The notes under the pieces are model-generated. The model was given only the letters and a program-made list of their open reading frames with translations. It did no database searches and had not been told where the DNA came from. Of a stretch of 58,009 bases of DNA, positions 34,021-48,500 are shown one piece after another. Positions within the stretch are counted from its first letter, which is position 1, and every line of letters starts with the position of its first letter. Origin of the DNA: Planctomycetota bacterium (GTDB lineage: Bacteria > Planctomycetota > Planctomycetia > JALXBF01); contig JALSID010000227.1 of the NCBI GenBank assembly GCA_026981825.1, forward strand, positions 1-58,009. The letters run 5' to 3'. The position numbers were made by a program, and so were the translations under genes.

Positions 34021-34521
34021 ACCGCCGCGATGGGCCAGTGTCGAGCTACCGCGTTGCTTCGGGTGACGGCGAGGAACTTTCCTGGGAGGGCCGGACAATC
34101 GGAGGGTGTCTCCTGTGGCATTTGAGCCCCCTCATTCCCCCATTGCCCTCGAACCACCCCTGCAAGCGGTCGGCAGCGGCTGGGGCACTCACCGGGACGC
34201 CACCTCCAGGGGCGGTCAGGCCGGTACGGAATCGGACGAACCGTGGCCGATTGCGAAGTGCTCTCCGGCAAGGCCCCCCGCCGGCATGCCAAGGGGGCTG
34301 GTACCGCTTCGAACCGGCTCAACAGCGCGGCGGTGGTTCGTATCGTCTGTCCGCCGCGGAACAGGCAGACTCAGACTTCCCGGCCTGGCGGCTGCAACCC
34401 GAGCCGTACCGGCAAGATCGTTGCAGTATCCCACGCGTAAGAAAGGCGCCGGACCGGCCGTACCGCTAGAATAGGGAACGGTGAAGCCGTGCCACAGCAC
34501 TACTCGGAGAGAAACGGGCCG

Positions 34522-34857
34522 ATGGACGCGCCGCAAGCCGTAAGGGCTCGGCAACAGGAGCGGTACCTGGAGATCGATTGGGGGGAGGGACACGTTTCGG
34601 TCTATCCCTACGGGTACCTTCGAGAACACTGCGAATGTGCTGTGTGTCGCGACGAGTGGACCGGCGAGCGACGGGGTAGCGGGGCCGTTACAGGCCAGGA
34701 TCTGACCATCACAAGCGTGGAACTCGTGGGCAACTACGCTATCCGCATCCGATGGAGCGATGGGCATGACACCGGCCTGTACACGTGGGAGCACCTGCGT
34801 TCCCTGTGCCGGTGCACTCGGTGCGCGCCTATCGGGAAGTCGGATGAGACCGAATGA
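34522..34857 (+). CDS. DUF971 / GBBH-like N-terminal domain protein
   Basis: LREHCECAVC, VGNYAIRIRWSDGHDTGLYTWEHL; GGAGAG RBS. Confidence 0.9.
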   Translation: MDAPQAVRARQQERYLEIDWGEGHVSVYPYGYLREHCECAVCRDEWTGERRGSGAVTGQDLTITSVELVGNYAIRIRWSDGHDTGLYTWEHLRSLCRCTRCAPIGKSDETE

Positions 34858-34960
34858 GGTTCCGGAGCGAAACCTCGAACTAACGGAAGCAAGACGAAGA
34901 ACAGAAGAATCCGAGAAGTAGGGAATACTCGACGAGGGCGGTGCATCCGTACTACGGGGG

Positions 34961-35488
34961 GTGGAGGTGCCTCGTTCGGGCAAGTTCATCGAGCAGCTTG
35001 TAGACCGGCACTATGAGGCCGTGTATCGGTTTGCATACCGGCTGACGGGGAACGTGCAGGATGCGGCGGAGCTGACGCAAGAGGCGTTTTGTGTGGCCCA
35101 GGAACGGCTGCGGCAGCTTCGCGACCCGAGCAGGGCCCGCGCATGGCTGTACAAGATCGCAAGGAATCTCTATCTCCAGAACCAACGCCGCCTGCAGCAG
35201 ATCCCCATGGGTGACGGGGACCTCCAACTCGCTGCTCCGCCACCACAGCACATAAGTGCGGAAGAGGTGGATGAAGAGCAGTTGCAGCGTGCGTTGAACC
35301 AATTGCCTGAAGAGTTCCGGACGCCGCTGGTTCTCTACTACTTCGGCGAACACTCGTACCGCGAGATCGCCGATATCCTCGGCATTCCGATTGGGACGGT
35401 AATGAGCCGCATCGCTCGGGCAAAGGAGAAACTGCGGGTTCTCCTCGGCCTTGGGGTCGACTCCCTCAGTGGCCCCTCGGCAACATGA
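34961..35488 (+). CDS. ECF RNA polymerase sigma factor
   Basis: VYRFAYRLTG..DAAELTQEAF, AWLYKIARN, ALNQLPEEFR..SYREIADILGIPIGTVMSRIARA. Confidence 0.93.
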   Translation: MEVPRSGKFIEQLVDRHYEAVYRFAYRLTGNVQDAAELTQEAFCVAQERLRQLRDPSRARAWLYKIARNLYLQNQRRLQQIPMGDGDLQLAAPPPQHISAEEVDEEQLQRALNQLPEEFRTPLVLYYFGEHSYREIADILGIPIGTVMSRIARAKEKLRVLLGLGVDSLSGPSAT

Positions 35489-35549
35489 AGCAGCAGTGGT
35501 GGAACACTGAGCCAGACCATTAAAAACGAACGGTCAGGAGTGCTCCTGG

Positions 35550-36386
35550 ATGTTGTGTGAAGAAGTACGACGCTATCTCGAGGTCATGGACGGTGACGGT
35601 GCGTCGGCTTTCTTGAGCGAAGACGATCGGCGGGCGGTTGTTCAGCACCTGGCCGGCTGCGTGAATTGTCAACACTTCGCCGAATGGTTGCGAAGCCAGG
35701 ATCAGGCAATCGGCCGGGCCATCCGCAACGTAAGCGTCCCTGCCGGGTTGCGCGAAAGAATCCTGGACCACCTCGGCCGCATGGAACCGGCTCGGTCCCT
35801 TAGCCGCCGTGTACGGCGTCTGGCGGTCGTTGCTGCCGCTGCCGCCGTTCTGGTGGGGGGCGCTTTGCTGTTGCTGTGGCTGGGGCGGCAGGGCCACCCG
35901 GAGGTCACCCACCTCGACGACAACCATCTGGTGCGGCTCGCCATTGCCTGGGAATTCGAGCCCCTCACCCCTCCCGCCGAAACGCGTCGGGACTGGCGTT
36001 CGTTGCAGGCGTGGTACCGACGTGAGACGAAGATCGAGTTGTTCTGGCCCAATGGGGTGCGAAGAGCTGCCATTCGCGGGGTGGGACGTGTTCGGGTGCA
36101 GGGAACGTATGTTGCTGCGTTGGAACTCGTCCCCTCTCACGCGCCCCGGTCTTCCTTCCTCGTCGCCATCTTGCCTCGCTCCCGCTTCGAACTTGATGGC
36201 TCGCCCACCGGTAGCGTGCGTGTGTTGCGGGACTCCCATAGCGTCTCCGTGGGAACCTGGTCCTATGGTGACGCACATTTTGTTGTCGTCTACCGGGGTC
36301 CGTTCGACGACATCCGGCCGTGCTTCCGGGGGCTGGGGACGGCAACGGCAAGTTTAACACCGCGCAGGCGGGCTCTGGAGGGCTGA
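35550..36386 (+). CDS. Membrane anti-sigma factor with zinc-binding (ZAS) motif
   Basis: HLAGCVNC (HxxxCxxC), one TM helix, extracytoplasmic domain; directly downstream of the ECF sigma gene. Confidence 0.8.
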   Translation: MLCEEVRRYLEVMDGDGASAFLSEDDRRAVVQHLAGCVNCQHFAEWLRSQDQAIGRAIRNVSVPAGLRERILDHLGRMEPARSLSRRVRRLAVVAAAAAVLVGGALLLLWLGRQGHPEVTHLDDNHLVRLAIAWEFEPLTPPAETRRDWRSLQAWYRRETKIELFWPNGVRRAAIRGVGRVRVQGTYVAALELVPSHAPRSSFLVAILPRSRFELDGSPTGSVRVLRDSHSVSVGTWSYGDAHFVVVYRGPFDDIRPCFRGLGTATASLTPRRRALEG

Positions 36387-36609: not shown

Positions 36610-37707
36610 CTACCGCTCTGTAGAGCGCTGCAACCGTTGCAGGACACGTCGCGAGCGGCAGAGAAGTCGATCGAAAGCAGGCGAGCGGAGGACGGCATAA
36701 CGTCCGTCCTGTTCCGCCACGACCTGTGCGGCAAGATCGTGTTTCCTGGCGAAAGCGAGCGCATCCTGGGGACCAAACACGGATAGGGCAGTCGCCAGGG
36801 CATCGGCAGTCATCGCCCGGGAATGGACGACGGAAACCTGGCGTGGCCCCTTGACCGCGATCCCTGTACGCGGATCGACGATGTGGGAGTAGCGAACACC
36901 GTTCAGCACAACGAACCGCTCTGCGTCGCCGGAGGTAGCAACTGCAGTATGCGCAAGGACGAGGTAGGTCGGCTCTGTGCTCGCAGGCATCGGCACGGCG
37001 ATGATCCAACCAGCCCGCCCAGGGGGCGGAGCGGAAACGGCGATGTCGCCGCCGCCGTCGACCAGAGCCGATTCAATGCCCCGGTTCTTCAGCACCTCGA
37101 TCGCCTGATCCAGAGCATATCCCTTCCCGATCCCGCCCAGGTCGATCTGCATGCCGGGCTGTCTCAGTTGCACCGCCCGTTTTTCGGGATAGAGAACGAT
37201 CTTGTCGTACCCGACCAGCTTACGTGCTGCCCGCAACCGGTTGGGATCGGGGAACCGCTTTTGCCGCCGAGCTCGCCGCCATAATCGGACCACAGGCCGT
37301 ACCGTGACGTCGAACGCCCCGCCGCTGATCCGAGCCACGCGCACGCTCTCTTCCAGCACGCGATAGAGATGCTCACTCACGACAACCGGTCCGCGGCCCG
37401 CCTGAGCACACAGACGGTTCAGCTCGCTGTCGGGGTTGTAGTCGCTGAGGATGCGGTCCAGTTCGGCCACCCGTGCAAACGCGGCCCGGAATGCGGATCG
37501 AGCGGCCTCCTCACTCGGTGCATATAGAATGATGGTGAAGTATGTTCCCATGTGGGATTCTGTCTGCTGGTAGCGCTTCAGCGGTCTTACCGCTCGGCCA
37601 CGCTCAACCGCTTCAGCTAGTCCGCCACCGAGCGCAACGAGCAGGCAGATCCCCAGCAAGGCCCACCGGACAGTGCATAACCTCGACCGTTCCAAGAGAG
37701 GGCTCAT
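36610..37707 (-). CDS. apbE: FAD:protein FMN transferase (ApbE)
   Basis: [60 protein letters not shown] and ADALATA. Confidence 0.93.
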
Positions 37708-38815
37708 GACCGTGTCTGTTCGAAACTTCTGTCGTGTTGTCCTGCCTGGTCTTGCGGTGCTTGCGGGCTGGGGCTTCGTCTTCGTTCCCCTGCTCGCACA
37801 AGTGCAGTATACGGTCGACGAGAAACGAGGCGTGGTCGTTGTGCCTGACGCCGAAGCTCGGACCGAAGCCGAAATGAAGCCCTACACCGAAGTCATCACC
37901 GGCACGGATGTCACGTTCGATATGGTCCCCATTCCGGGGGGAACCTTTACGATGGGTAGCCCGCCCGACGAATGGGGGCGGAATGAGGACGAAGGGCCCC
38001 AACATCTGGTCACCGTGGAACCGTTCTGGATGGGCAAGTACGAGGTGACGTGGGACGAGTATGAGATCTGGATGTTCAGCCTCGACATCGCTCGCCGCAA
38101 ACTCACCGGGCAACCCCCAACGCCGCTGGACAAATTAGCGGATGCGGTGACGCGGCCGACCAAGCCTTACACGGACATGACCTTTGGCATGGGCAAGAAG
38201 CGCTGCCCGGCGATCTGTATGACCCAGTTGGCTGCCAAGGTGTACTGCCAGTGGTTGAGCGCCAAGACGGGCCGCTACTATCGGCTGCCCACCGAGGCGG
38301 AGTGGGAATACGCGTGCCGTGCCGGCACGAAGACCGCGTACTACTTTGGGGACGATCCGGAAGTGCTGGACGAGTACGCCTGGTACTTCGACAACAGCGA
38401 CGACCGCTACCATCCCGTGGGTCAGAAGAAGCCGAACCCGTGGGGGCTGTATGACATGCACGGCAACGTCGCCGAATGGTGCCTGGACCAGTACATACCC
38501 GACTTCTACAAGCGGTTCGACCCGAAGGTTCCGGTGAAGAACCCCTATGCCAAACCGACCAAGCTCTATCCACGCGTGGTTCGAGGTGGCTCGTGGGACG
38601 ATGACCCCGAAATGTGCCGCAGCGCCGCACGTCGGGGGTCGGATCCGGAGTGGAAAATCCAGGATCCGCAACTTCCCCAAAGCATGTGGTACCACACGGA
38701 TGCCATCTTCGTTGGTTTCCGTGTGGTTCGGCCCCTTCGCGAACCGACCGAACAAGAGAAGAAGCTCTATGGACCCGACCCATACCAGGTCTGGGAGGAT
38801 AGCCGCCAGAACTAG
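37706..38815 (+). CDS. FGE/SUMF1-fold (FGE-sulfatase domain) exported protein, probably not a formylglycine generator
   Basis: [53 protein letters not shown] and VGFRVVR; only one Cys in the C-terminal region; signal peptide. Confidence 0.88.
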
Positions 38816-39114: not shown

Positions 39115-40443
39115 ATGAGCGAGCAGAAGGAGAAGAGACGCGGTACGTCGCGGCGCGAATTCCTCAAGAAGGGATCGGTAGCGGCCACAGCAGCCGCAAC
39201 TCTCGCAGGGCTTTCCATCGAACGAGCTGCCCACGCGGCTGGTAGCGACGTGATCAAGATCGGTCTGATCGGTTGCGGTGGGCGCGGCACCGGAGCGGTC
39301 CGCGATGCAATCAACAGCGGGCATCCGGTGAAGCTGGTCGCCATGGCAGATGCGTTCGACTTCCAGCTCCAGAAGAGCCTGGAACGCCTGATGGGGGACG
39401 AGAAGCTCCGCAAGCACATCGATGTGCCCCCCGATCGCCAGTTCGCCGGCCTCGATGCCTACAAGCATGTCTGCCAATCGGACGTCGATGTTGTGATCCT
39501 CGCCACTCCTCCCGGCTTCCGGCCGGTTCAGTTTGCCGAGGCGATCAAGAACGGCAAGCACGTGTTTGCGGAAAAGCCGATCGCCACAGACGCTCCTGGA
39601 GTCCGCCTGTTCCTGGCGGCAAACGAAGAAGCCAAGAAGAAGGGGCTCGCCGTGGGTATCGGCCTGCAACGCCACCATCAGGCGGTCTACATCGAGACCA
39701 TGAAGAGGCTCAAGGACGGGGCGATCGGCGACATCAACTTTATGCGCGCCTACTGGAACGGTGCCGGTGTTTGGGTACGCGACCGTTTGCCCGGCATGAA
39801 CGAGATGCAGTACCAGGTGTGGAACTGGTACTACTTCGTTTGGACGTGTGGGGACCACATTGTGGAACAGCACATCCACAACATCGACGTGATTAACTGG
39901 TTGAAGGGAACCCATCCGATCAAAGCCCAGGGTCAGGGTGGCCGACAGGTACGGGTCGGCAAGAAGTACGGCCAGATCTACGACCACCACTTCGTTGAGT
40001 TCACGTACCCGGACGGATCGGTCATGCTCAGCCAGTGCCGCCATATCCCCGGCTGCTGGAACAGCGTCTCCGAGCACGCACACGGCAGCAACGGCTATTG
40101 CCACATTGGGCGAGGCATCATCTACGACAAGAAAGGGAACGTTGTCTGGCGCTACCGCGGCCGGGCACGGAGCCCGTACGTGCAGGAGCACTACGACCTC
40201 TACAGTGCCATCCTGGCTGGGGAACCCTACAACGAGGGGGACTACGGTGCGTACAGCACCATGACCGCCATCATGGGGCGCATGGCCACCTACTCCGGCA
40301 AAGAAGTCACCTGGGAAACCGCGATTAACTCGAACTTGAGCCTGCAACCGACCGAGTACAGTTGGGATGCTGAACCGCCCGTCAAACCGGACAAAGACGG
40401 CTACTATCCGGTAGCAAAGCCGGGTGTCACGATTCCCTGGTAG
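39115..40443 (+). CDS. Tat-exported Gfo/Idh/MocA-family oxidoreductase
   Basis: SRREFLK twin-arginine signal; IGLIGCGGRGTGA, HVFAEKP and GDHIVEQHIHNIDV. Confidence 0.92.
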   Translation: MSEQKEKRRGTSRREFLKKGSVAATAAATLAGLSIERAAHAAGSDVIKIGLIGCGGRGTGAVRDAINSGHPVKLVAMADAFDFQLQKSLERLMGDEKLRKHIDVPPDRQFAGLDAYKHVCQSDVDVVILATPPGFRPVQFAEAIKNGKHVFAEKPIATDAPGVRLFLAANEEAKKKGLAVGIGLQRHHQAVYIETMKRLKDGAIGDINFMRAYWNGAGVWVRDRLPGMNEMQYQVWNWYYFVWTCGDHIVEQHIHNIDVINWLKGTHPIKAQGQGGRQVRVGKKYGQIYDHHFVEFTYPDGSVMLSQCRHIPGCWNSVSEHAHGSNGYCHIGRGIIYDKKGNVVWRYRGRARSPYVQEHYDLYSAILAGEPYNEGDYGAYSTMTAIMGRMATYSGKEVTWETAINSNLSLQPTEYSWDAEPPVKPDKDGYYPVAKPGVTIPW

Positions 40444-45535: not shown

Positions 45536-48500
45536 CTAGCCACGGGCCCGCCGCACAATGTCCCGTTCCACTGCACGCGAGTCCTTCAGGATCCTGTTCA
45601 ATGTATCGTCGAGGATCAGGTTGTCGATGGCGAGGTCCACGTAGAGGATGTCTCGGCCCTTGCCGTCCTGGATCGTGTCCCGACCGGCACCACCGGTGAT
45701 GATGTCCTTGGCTACACCACCGGAGATCAGGTCGTTACCGGCGCCGCCCGACAGCTCGTCCTTGCCGCCTTCGCCATAGATCTCGTCGTTACCGCCCTGT
45801 CCGGCGACGATGTCGTTACCGCGTCCTGCGAAGATCACGTCGTCGCCGGGGCCACCCAGGATGCGGTCGTGGCCGAAGCCGGTGGGCAACAATTCGTGAT
45901 CGCCGTAGATCAGGTCATCACCGCCCTGACCGCGGAGGCGGTCGTCGCCGTTGTTCCCGATCAGGGTATCGTTGCCGCTCCCGGCGTTGATCGTGTCGTT
46001 CCCCTCACCACCGACCAGGTAGTCTTTCCCTGCCGCTCCGACCAGGACGTCGTTCCCGTCGCGGCCATCGACGTAGTCATCCCCCTGCTCACCGCGGAGG
46101 ATATCGCGACCGGCGCCGCCAAGCAGGCGGTCGTTACCGTAGCCGCCGAAGCTCACCACCCGCTGCGGAACGGCTTCACCGGCTTCGAGCTCGTCGTCAC
46201 CGTCACCGCCGAAGATCATTACTCGCGTCAGCGGTCCCGAACCAAGCACCGCGTCGACCAGCTCGGCGGTGTACGGTGTATCGATGTCCAACCCGCCGCC
46301 GCGGATCAGGATGTCCCGCGGATCGCCGGTGTCAACGCCCGTGCGGATCAGATCGTCGAGGTCGGTGCCGGTGATTTCGAGCCGGCTATTGACACGGTTG
46401 ACCATCTGGGTGATAGCGAGGTCGTAGAGTCCGATGTCGTCCGTACCGCTGGCCGCCGTCACGTGGATCAGGAACTCCTCGCCTTGAGCGGCGAAGAAAT
46501 CGACGCGGTCCGGAGGACAGGCAGCGATCGGACAAGGCAACGGAGTAGTCAGATCGGAGGCACGGAAGACCTCCACGTCCAGGTCGCCGCTGATGGTCGG
46601 ATCGGTGGTGAGCTGGACGGTGACGATCCCGTTCGTGGGGGCAACAAACCGGTACCAGTCGTCGTCGCCGAAGGTTCGGGTCATGAGTTCCACGGCGCCG
46701 CGCACCGACCGCCGGTTGCGGATGACGTAGACGGGCAGAGTCGGTGTCGCAGCCGTGGCCGGAGTATCGTCGCGGGTCGGAGTGCTGTCGAACACATCGT
46801 GGTTGGTGATGCGGAGGCTGTAGGGGCTGGGCCCGGTGAGCGTGGTAATCCGTGCGAAGAACTGTTCGCCGGCGGCATTCACCGGCACAGTAACGCTCCG
46901 CACGCTGCCGCCCCCGGAGGCGGACCCGATAACGACTCCCGAGCTGTTCAGCACCTCAAGCTGCAGATCGGCACGCGCCGGATTCGCCACAGTTATGGTG
47001 AACTGGAACGTTCCCGGTGCTGCCGCGGTGACGCGGAACACGTCCACGTCCACCTGCGGACGGGTCGGGATCGTCAAATCGTCCAAGATCACGTCCACAA
47101 CCCGGCCGTGATCGGTGGCGGTGTCCAGGGTGTCGTTGGGTTCAAACCGATCGGGCACGACCACGTCAAAGACGGCGACGAAGTCGCCACCCGGCACACC
47201 GTCACCACTCGGGAACACTCCGGAGAACTCACCGTCAATCCGGTTGTCCGCAAGATCCTCCAGGCTGGTGTCACCCTCGATCGTGAACGTATAGCTGTCG
47301 TTCGGCAGCGGTGACACAAGCGGGATGACCAGGGTGTTGCCGCTCAAGTTCGACGGGTCGATGATCATCAGGTTCGAGACGTCGCCGCTCAACGCCCCGA
47401 CCAGGCTGAAGTTGGCCGGGATGATAGTCGCCGGGTCGATGTCGTCCGAATCGAAGGTGACAACGATCTGCGTCGGGTTGACGTTCACCTCGGGGTACGG
47501 ATCGAGGTTCGTGACCCGCGGACCGGTAACGTCGACGGTGAACTCCAGCGGGCTAGAGATCGCCACGTTGCCGGCCTTGTCGGTAACCCGCACGCGAGCC
47601 ACATAGTCCCCCTCGGGCAGGGTCGTGTTCACGGTAACCAGGAACGCGCCGTTGGCGTCGGTGAGCACCGTTCCTTCGGTGAAGTCGCCGCCTACCCCCT
47701 CGATGTCCAGCTCCACCGTTAGACCGGTCACGTCCGCCAGGGAATCGAACGGAGCGATATCGCGGACGAGACCGATGAACGTGGGGGTCGTGTCGTTAGT
47801 TCGCCGCACCGGCCGCGGCGTTCCGTCATCTTCGGCCAACTGCAGCGTGACCGTTGGTGCGCTGGTATCCACCTCGATGGTCAGCGCCGGAGGCGGCGCG
47901 AACGCTTCGTTGCCGGCCAGATCCACAACACGGACCTGGACGTCGTAAATGCCGTCCGCCAGCGGCGGATCGACCAGCACGCTCGCAAAACCGCTGGCGT
48001 CCGTGGCGCCGAAACCGTCGTCGAATAGGCCATCGCCGTCCAGTTCGAGGTAGACCAGGTTACCGGCAAGCTGACCCGGGAAGTTGTCGTTCACAGTCAC
48101 GTTTATGTGGGGCTGATCCAGGTTCGTGCGATTGTCGCCGAAGACGCCCGTGTCATCGGTGGGTTCGAGCTCGACGCTGAGGATCGTGGGCGGCTCTGCC
48201 TCGTACACGAACGGCCGCACAAAGTTGCCACCGGGCACTCCGTCACCGCTCGGCAGCGGATTGGCTAGACCGCCCGGCCCCGGGAACTCACCATCCAGCG
48301 CCAGGAAGACCGTGTCCTGCAGCCCGGCACCGCCATAGGGGGACGCGCCGGCGTAGACCGTGAGCTGATACAGGTCGAACACGGTCAGGGTATCGAACTG
48401 GAGTTCGACCTGGCTGCGTGGCTCGAGGCCTCCGCTTGCCGGCAAGATCGTGTGGGTGATGCCGGTAAGCGGAATGATCACATCGTCGGCGGTGTTCAGC

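Follow-up and report, generated by a model that had tools for sequence, protein, structure and literature searches.

An FGE-fold, PvdO-like protein family as predicted substrates of a dedicated ApbE flavin transferase lineage in Planctomycetota

Introduction

What does an ApbE flavin transferase act on when none of the proteins encoded beside it carries a canonical flavinylation motif? The extracytosolic proteins known to be flavinylated by ApbE include the FMN_bind domains of NqrC, RnfG, NosR and PplA, as well as NqrB/RnfD, DUF2271 and DUF3570 proteins (Meheust et al. 2021, PMC8238504). In the same survey, ApbE fusions were among the evidence for DUF2271 as a substrate, 4% of genomes were found to contain an orphan apbE, and further substrates were predicted (PMC8238504).

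The question is raised by a contig of a Planctomycetota bacterium (GenBank assembly GCA_026981825.1, contig JALSID010000227.1), of which a stretch of 58,009 nucleotides (hereafter the window) was analysed. A first-pass annotation of this DNA had noticed the heptapeptide DAVTRPT, resembling the canonical D-x-x-[ST]-G-A-[ST] with R-P in place of G-A, in a predicted exported FGE-fold protein encoded next to apbE, and had suggested that this protein may be a covalently flavinylated redox protein. No publication linking ApbE to FGE-fold or FGE-sulfatase proteins was found in our literature search. Here we propose that the 380-aa protein belongs to a large undescribed extracytoplasmic FGE-fold (PvdO-like) family of predicted ApbE substrates.

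Results

Genomic context of the apbE locus

The apbE and FGE-like genes are divergently oriented, and a gene for a Gfo/Idh/MocA (GFO) oxidoreductase lies downstream of the FGE-like gene (Table 1). The FGE-like protein more probably starts at the ATG at 37706 than at the listed beginning of its open reading frame. In the palindrome CATG at 37705-37708, the start codon of apbE (37707-37705 on the minus strand) overlaps the first ATG available to the FGE-like gene (37706-37708); if both are used, the divergent pair has no intergenic region.

Table 1. Features of the apbE/FGE-like/GFO locus (positions in the window)
Feature	Position	Strand	Details
ApbE-family FAD:protein FMN transferase	36610..37707	-	Pfam ApbE 5.8e-81, 272 bits; N-terminal hydrophobic export/anchor segment
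Predicted exported PvdO-like FGE-fold protein, 380 aa as listed	37673..38815	+	Pfam FGE-sulfatase 2.7e-48; predicted ApbE substrate/flavin carrier
Diverged ApbE motif D157-A-V-T-R-P-T163	38141..38161	+	Same MAFFT alignment columns as canonical motifs of relatives
Codon ACC for T163, predicted FMN-accepting threonine	38159..38161	+	Aligns with the canonical acceptor position
Family-specific C-terminal segment W327..Y340 of the FGE-like protein	38651..38692	+	Invariant residues in G-A and x-P clades
Gfo/Idh/MocA (GFO) oxidoreductase, predicted Tat-exported	39115..40443	+	Twin-arginine leader RREFLKKG; Pfam GFO_IDH_MocA 7.9e-10 and C-terminal domains

A hydrophobic N-terminal segment is present in the FGE-like protein (read by eye), and its partner GFO protein bears a Tat leader. 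The latter gives weak scores against the NCBIfam models for inositol 2-dehydrogenase and BT_2158 glycoside 3-dehydrogenase, and its PDB relatives are inositol and aldose dehydrogenases; it is predicted to act in the periplasm as a dehydrogenase of sugars or polyols, to contain NAD(P) and to reduce the flavoprotein. The window contains no ORF with a CxxCH motif, and neither a cytochrome c nor another obvious electron acceptor is encoded in it.

Two other regions of the window were also annotated. Upstream of apbE (34489-36386, plus strand) are genes for a GBBH-like N-terminal domain protein, an ECF sigma factor and a zf-HC2 anti-sigma factor; because this order is kept only in the closest relative (L001), these genes probably lie outside the conserved unit. 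On the minus strand, a giant ORF of more than 4100 aa (45536-58009) runs off the end of the window, and its Big_13 and Big_5 Ig-like domains, Laminin_G_3 domain and RTX calcium-binding repeats indicate that it is probably a secreted adhesin-like protein.

Sequence family and predicted structure of the FGE-like protein

FGE-sulfatase is the only Pfam family matched by the window protein, which does not belong to FMN_bind, NqrB/RnfD, DUF2271 or DUF3570. Like FGE (SUMF1), it has the FGE-sulfatase fold with the blocks DMxGNVxEW and RGGSW and one further conserved block. In FGE, the copper-binding catalytic Cys pair follows the RGGS motif. In contrast, the window protein has a single Cys after RGGSW, where the family consensus has Leu, and the catalytic pair is therefore absent, as had been recognized at first pass. 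A further difference from FGE is that no sulfatase is found among the conserved neighbours, the partners being ApbE and a Gfo/Idh/MocA dehydrogenase.

The closest structure is that of PvdO (PDB 5hha; PDB match E 8e-31, Foldseek 1.7e-18), the dihydropyoverdine dehydrogenase of fluorescent pseudomonads, and the closest curated NCBIfam model is again PvdO (NF051459), with 135 bits against a cut-off of 500 bits. Foldseek also matches human and bacterial FGE at about E 1e-15. The window protein resembles PvdO, a periplasmic protein implicated in oxidation, in having the FGE fold without the catalytic Cys pair and in the KLAD..TRP start of the loop in which DAVTRPT lies. PvdO differs in having Gly at the acceptor position, where the window protein has T163, in the end of its aligned sequence, which stops before the C-terminal W..DPQ.P.S.W segment of the window protein with only about 15 residues left, and in its pvd operon, as the neighbours of the window gene encode ApbE and GFO proteins rather than Pvd proteins. 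PvdO has been purified without a cofactor, in an inactive state (PMC6206403). That PvdO shares AD..TRP with the window protein though it has no recognized flavinylation counts against the flavinylation reading.

More than 8000 homologues of the FGE-like protein were scored, the best 120 of which are 62-90% identical to it and come mostly from Planctomycetota; the motif-loop segment is nearly invariant among these 120. The search of representative proteins was dominated by multi-domain FGE repeat proteins, and single-domain matches were used. Within its own genome, the window protein is the sole member of the family. In five family members (P0182, P0191, P0199, P0219 and P0248), Ser occupies the acceptor position (DAVTRPS, DAVTHPS) and the FGE-like domain lies behind a region of about 400 aa resembling FG-GAP/VCBS; one of the five genes is located beside a GH106 gene, and no ApbE linkage was seen on the short contig.

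In the AF2 model (pTM 0.80), residues D157-V159 stand at the end of a helix (151-159) and T163 follows just after it in an unstructured loop with pLDDT below 50. An invariant loop modelled with such low confidence is as would be expected of a cofactor or partner site. A second invariant segment of low confidence (pLDDT below 50 at residues 330-339) is found in the C-terminal part, beyond the match to Pfam FGE-sulfatase (up to residue 330). Residues P165, Y166, G174 and P179 and, in the C-terminal segment, W327, D331, P332, P335, S337 and W339 are common to both motif types of the family (see below), and the segment W327..Y340 may be part of a flavin pocket or a partner interface.

The DAVTRPT motif and canonical motifs in homologous proteins

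The motif is encoded by GAT GCG GTG ACG CGG CCG ACC, exactly where it had been reported, and we likewise found D-x-x-[ST]-G-A-[ST] to be missing from the FGE-like protein, the ApbE and the GFO protein. The first-pass description of an insertion in the FGE fold is overstated: the segment is a family-specific loop and no large insertion, and its first half (KLAD..TRP) is common to PvdO. Since the loose pattern D..[ST]..[ST] is present in 17% of ORFs of similar size, a match to it, taken alone, is weak. This frequency, together with the residues shared with PvdO, would fit a reading in which DAVTRPT is a conserved structural loop of the PvdO-like fold and both its likeness to an ApbE site and its proximity to apbE are meaningless. 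On the other hand, a protein of 380 aa is expected to contain only 0.005 matches to the tighter pattern D[AG][VIL][ST]..[ST], in which positions 1-4 and 7 agree with the canonical consensus. The family form of the motif is D-[AG]-[VIL]-[ST]-x-P-[ST] (hereafter the x-P type, as distinct from the canonical G-A type).

A metagenome scan for DNA encoding D-A-[VI]-x-G-A-T-x-P-Y yielded at least 80 loci, and 77 of the 80 matches listed map to the corresponding loop of FGE-like homologues that share 38-61% identity with the window protein. In one such homologue (L133), for instance, the loop reads VDAVSGATQPYTEMSFGMGIEGYPAI and is aligned with the window loop that holds DAVTRPT. In the MAFFT alignment, DAVSGAT, DAISGAT and DAVTGAT of relatives share the columns of DAVTRPT, and T163 thus aligns with the FMN-accepting Thr. 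Because homologues have the exact canonical motif in these columns, DAVTRPT is predicted to be a diverged form of a genuine flavinylation site with T163 as the acceptor. The concentration of canonical motifs in this one family and at this one position also argues against a coincidental loop, as do the adjacency to apbE and the gene fusion described below, so that we strongly disfavour the structural-loop reading.

The last motif position is Thr or Ser in all 183 aligned family members and Gly in PvdO. At position 6, proteins of the G-A type have Ala, and Pro is found in 112 of 115 x-P members; T, S, A and V all occur at position 4, and position 5 is unconstrained. In a tree of 184 domains from which the motif columns had been removed, the G-A type forms two clades, one deep and the other nested among x-P clades. 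The nested clade consists of Flavobacteriaceae, as judged from source names, with [ST]GAT in 119 of 120 homologues, and its sister is an x-P protein (P0211). When the G-A DNA pattern was sought in 251 Verrucomicrobiota genomes, it was not found.

With x-P in place of G-A, the part of the ApbE motif that is best conserved is altered, which counts against flavinylation of x-P sites; the published data are for milder core changes only, about 50% flavinylation being left after either G to A or A to V (PMC12052999). It might be that the ancestor was flavinylated and that the Planctomycetota x-P site no longer takes FMN, the protein now acting as a scaffold, binding sugars or carrying a non-covalent cofactor, with ApbE in another role, such as FAD/FMN trafficking. 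Such a relic would explain the departure from a G-A core that is invariant in all verified motifs. However, a dead site would not be expected to keep its acceptor, which is Thr or Ser in 115/115 x-P members with T-to-S exchanges only. Further evidence on this alternative comes from the distribution of apbE and from the enzyme itself.

Linkage to ApbE and GFO genes and natural gene fusions

Co-occurrence of the motif with an adjacent apbE across genomes had been suggested as a check on the first-pass proposal, and it is borne out: an ApbE gene, identified by HMM, is adjacent to the FGE-like gene in 70 of 80 species-representative x-P genome loci (Planctomycetota-type), almost always in divergent orientation. 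Gemmataceae-type members with DAITGPT or DAVTRPT show ApbE linkage too. The gene that immediately follows the FGE-like gene encodes a GFO homologue in 65 of 81 x-P loci and, among the matches listed, in 50 of 77 G-A loci. Beyond ApbE, FGE-like and GFO genes, no further conserved neighbours (cytochromes, membrane subunits) were found across the 81 loci. The pairing of ApbE and FGE-like genes persists in loci without a GFO gene (e.g., L029-L039, L042 and L044). Other gene orders include FGE-like, GFO, ApbE (P0211) and, at L217:4214-11198 (P0188), 3-keto-disaccharide hydrolase, a PSCyt1 plus FGE-like protein (DVVSSPT), ApbE, GFO and GFO; the presence of the 3-keto-disaccharide hydrolase in the latter operon hints that some such systems may oxidise glycosides at C3.

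Gene fusions were also observed. In a metagenomic protein (P0174), an N-terminal ApbE and a C-terminal FGE-like domain form a single chain of 730 aa, and the FGE-like domain has the x-P motif DAITRPT, an association that is difficult to reconcile with a dead x-P site. In other relatives, cytochrome c modules, either PSCyt1 or NapC/NirT tetrahaem, are fused to the FGE-like domain. The sampled member of the deep G-A clade (metagenome, L117:5974-7494) is a protein of 506 aa with a TM helix, a NapC/NirT domain (PF03264, 3e-26) and then an FGE-like domain with DAISGAT, and its gene is followed by a GFO gene; the arrangement resembles a quinone-linked form of the FGE-like/GFO system. The ApbE/FGE-like fusion, the cytochrome c fusions and the lack of known substrate families in the genome (see below) all point to a redox role of a covalent flavoprotein on an FGE scaffold.

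Among the matches listed, none of the 77 G-A loci has an ApbE gene by tblastn and HMM; these loci were retrieved with a motif-requiring pattern from metagenome contigs with shorter flanks, and 41 of them have at least 1.5 kb upstream. When absence was counted only in loci of at least 6 kb, ApbE was adjacent in 76 x-P loci and absent in 9, and the corresponding numbers for G-A loci, among the matches listed, were 0 and 39. Similarly, the x-P protein P0211 has an operon ApbE and its 29 G-A sister sequences lack one. Adjacency of ApbE appears to have been gained precisely where the motif is non-canonical, which is not expected if x-P sites were relics. Since the tree provides only two phylogenetically independent G-A/x-P contrasts, both in the expected direction, the covariation is unable to reach significance.

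A Pirellulaceae-type x-P subclade (L048, L055, L056 and L060) with D-G-[ILV]-[ST]-[RK]-P-T, e.g., DGITRPT, lacks ApbE to a distance of 10 kb, and all ApbE paralogues sampled from it are outside the ApbE clade described in the next section; retention of x-P in this subclade would agree with a relic. The first-pass annotation had regarded conservation of the motif in genomes lacking apbE as evidence against flavinylation. In all 10 genomes without adjacency, 1-5 ApbE genes are still encoded elsewhere, so that this comparison is unable to refute the proposal.

A dedicated ApbE lineage and a search for other substrates

The adjacent ApbEs, together with the window copy and the fused copy, form one clade of 73 members (SH-aLRT 99), distinct from the further ApbE paralogues encoded in these genomes, among them the second copy in the window's genome. 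Some ApbE/Ftp proteins are FAD pyrophosphatases and not transferases, which would leave room for a role of ApbE other than flavinylation; at the FAD-stacking position, Tyr marks the FMN transferase class and Asn the FAD pyrophosphatase class (PMC4767422). Alignment of the window ApbE with T. pallidum Ftp and its N55Y variant places Tyr at this position (SDYNPDS), and the conserved His (..SHI.DP.TG) as well as the TSGD, GKGY and ADALATA motifs are kept. By these residues, the window ApbE is of the FAD-binding FMN transferase class, and not of the pyrophosphatase class that the relic reading could invoke. Considering the retained acceptor, the gain of adjacency, the x-P fusion and these residues on one side and the altered core and the Pirellulaceae-type subclade on the other, we regard loss of flavinylation at the x-P site as rather unlikely.

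Two ApbE genes are present in the window's genome, which is 95% complete. Neither FMN_bind, NqrB/RnfD nor DUF2271 proteins were detected in it, and the same is true of the genomes of L001 and L058; the empty result for DUF3570 is uninformative, as the control for this search had no match anywhere. As candidates for a hidden canonical substrate, a D..[ST]GA[ST] scan of the whole genome, which covered the window's genome only, returned just GltB, LarC, GspF and non-coding frames, and these were rejected. The second ApbE (C323:26135-30107) has a Tat-like leader (RRSFLTGRA) and is followed by genes for a 353-aa membrane protein and a Tat-type GFO protein. Because it belongs to a different clade and neither an FGE-like gene nor a canonical flavinylation motif is found at its locus, it is, by sequence criteria, a second orphan ApbE.

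The location of this second ApbE next to a gene for a Tat-exported GFO protein and away from any FGE-like gene, and the frequent presence of GFO in the cluster, would be in line with the idea that the real ApbE target is the Tat-exported GFO protein or a protein encoded elsewhere, and that the FGE-like protein, as a flavin-free PvdO-like oxidoreductase or maturation factor, is no more than a neighbour in the operon. However, neither a [ST]GA[ST]-like nor a D..[ST]..[ST] site is present in the GFO protein, ApbE and FGE-like genes stay paired in loci devoid of GFO, the natural fusion joins ApbE to an FGE-like domain and not to GFO, and the canonical motif of relatives is located in the FGE-like protein. 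A target other than the FGE-like protein thus appears quite improbable.

Discussion

Considering that the window protein has a diverged ApbE site and its own apbE gene beside it, it is probably an unrecognized covalent flavoprotein, which would take electrons from the neighbouring periplasmic sugar-type dehydrogenase. We give the explanation as a whole, namely an FGE-fold family of ApbE substrates with a dedicated ApbE and a GFO redox partner, a probability of roughly two in three. Most likely, the dedicated ApbE flavinylates T163 and the resulting flavoprotein re-oxidises the GFO dehydrogenase. The first-pass idea of a covalently flavinylated redox protein on an FGE scaffold is backed by the motifs of homologues, the linkage and the fusions; for the x-P variant, we infer the flavin as well as an altered specificity of the adjacent ApbE, and the motif is also kept in one subclade that has no ApbE adjacent.

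In the proposed mechanism, FMN would be joined by a phosphoester to the last Thr/Ser of the loop motif. The canonical form D-A-[VI]-[ST]-G-A-T would have been kept in Flavobacteriaceae and in the deep clade fused to NapC/NirT cytochromes, and in Planctomycetota and allied lineages the motif would have shifted to D-A-[VI]-[ST]-x-P-[ST], of which DAVTRPT is the window form. The changed site would be served by the dedicated ApbE lineage, normally encoded divergently next door, and this enzyme would move FMN from FAD onto T163. The Tat-exported GFO enzyme might then oxidise a sugar-type substrate with its bound NAD(P), and the covalent FMN could take the hydride from the bound NAD(P)H and thereby re-oxidise the GFO cofactor. 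From the flavin, electrons may pass to haem c, as in relatives with a fused cytochrome c module, or to another acceptor; both this direction of electron flow and the partners are what we infer.

Several features of the FGE-like family resemble those of known ApbE substrates. The window protein is predicted to be exported and is linked to apbE, including an ApbE fusion in the family (compare DUF2271), its predicted acceptor ends a heptapeptide of the form D-x-x-[ST]-x-x-[ST], the canonical motif is present unchanged in relatives, and a redox context is provided by cytochrome c fusions and a dehydrogenase partner. In contrast, the FGE/C-type-lectin-like fold is unrelated to all four known substrate families, R-P in the window site takes the place of the G-A present at all verified sites, and the changed site is accompanied by a separate ApbE lineage; flavinylation is in this case predicted from sequence. 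Compared with known ApbE-dependent extracytosolic flavoproteins, the fold, the form of the motif and the co-travelling transferase lineage would all be new.

The GFO partner is similar to two Tat-exported enzymes that bind NAD(P) tightly, GFOR of Z. mobilis and the glycoside 3-dehydrogenase BT2158 of B. thetaiotaomicron, in its twin-arginine leader and GFO fold, and the 3-keto-disaccharide hydrolase of one related operon adds to this likeness. Exported GFO enzymes of these types either pass their electrons to a second sugar substrate, or their electron sink is an acknowledged gap (PMC8121099). The difference is that a dedicated flavoprotein partner is proposed for the window GFO. It is possible, though we would put it at somewhat less than an even chance, that all these observations reflect a class of periplasmic respiratory dehydrogenases wired via an FGE-fold covalent flavoprotein, which would give Tat-exported GFO enzymes with bound NAD(P) their missing electron outlet and would be widespread in Planctomycetota and Flavobacteriaceae and occur also in some Verrucomicrobiota and in the deep NapC/NirT-fused clade. 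In this joint scenario, the Planctomycetota ApbE lineage would read [ST]-x-P-[ST] instead of [ST]-G-A-[ST], forming an orthogonal pair with a second natural flavin-tag specificity.

If the main explanation is true, FGE-like proteins would represent a fifth, structurally unrelated family of ApbE substrates, every x-P member of which would escape motif-based surveys, and would explain part of the 'orphan apbE' genomes of Meheust et al. 2021. It would also mean that even the most conserved core of the motif recognized by ApbE is open to change in company with a dedicated transferase, which would be directly useful for orthogonal flavin-tagging. Moreover, a cofactor-based function would be provided for a large PvdO-like branch of the FGE fold, and the question of how Tat-exported NAD(P)-bound Gfo/Idh/MocA dehydrogenases, including those of the glycoside 3-dehydrogenase type, dispose of electrons in the periplasm would have a testable answer.
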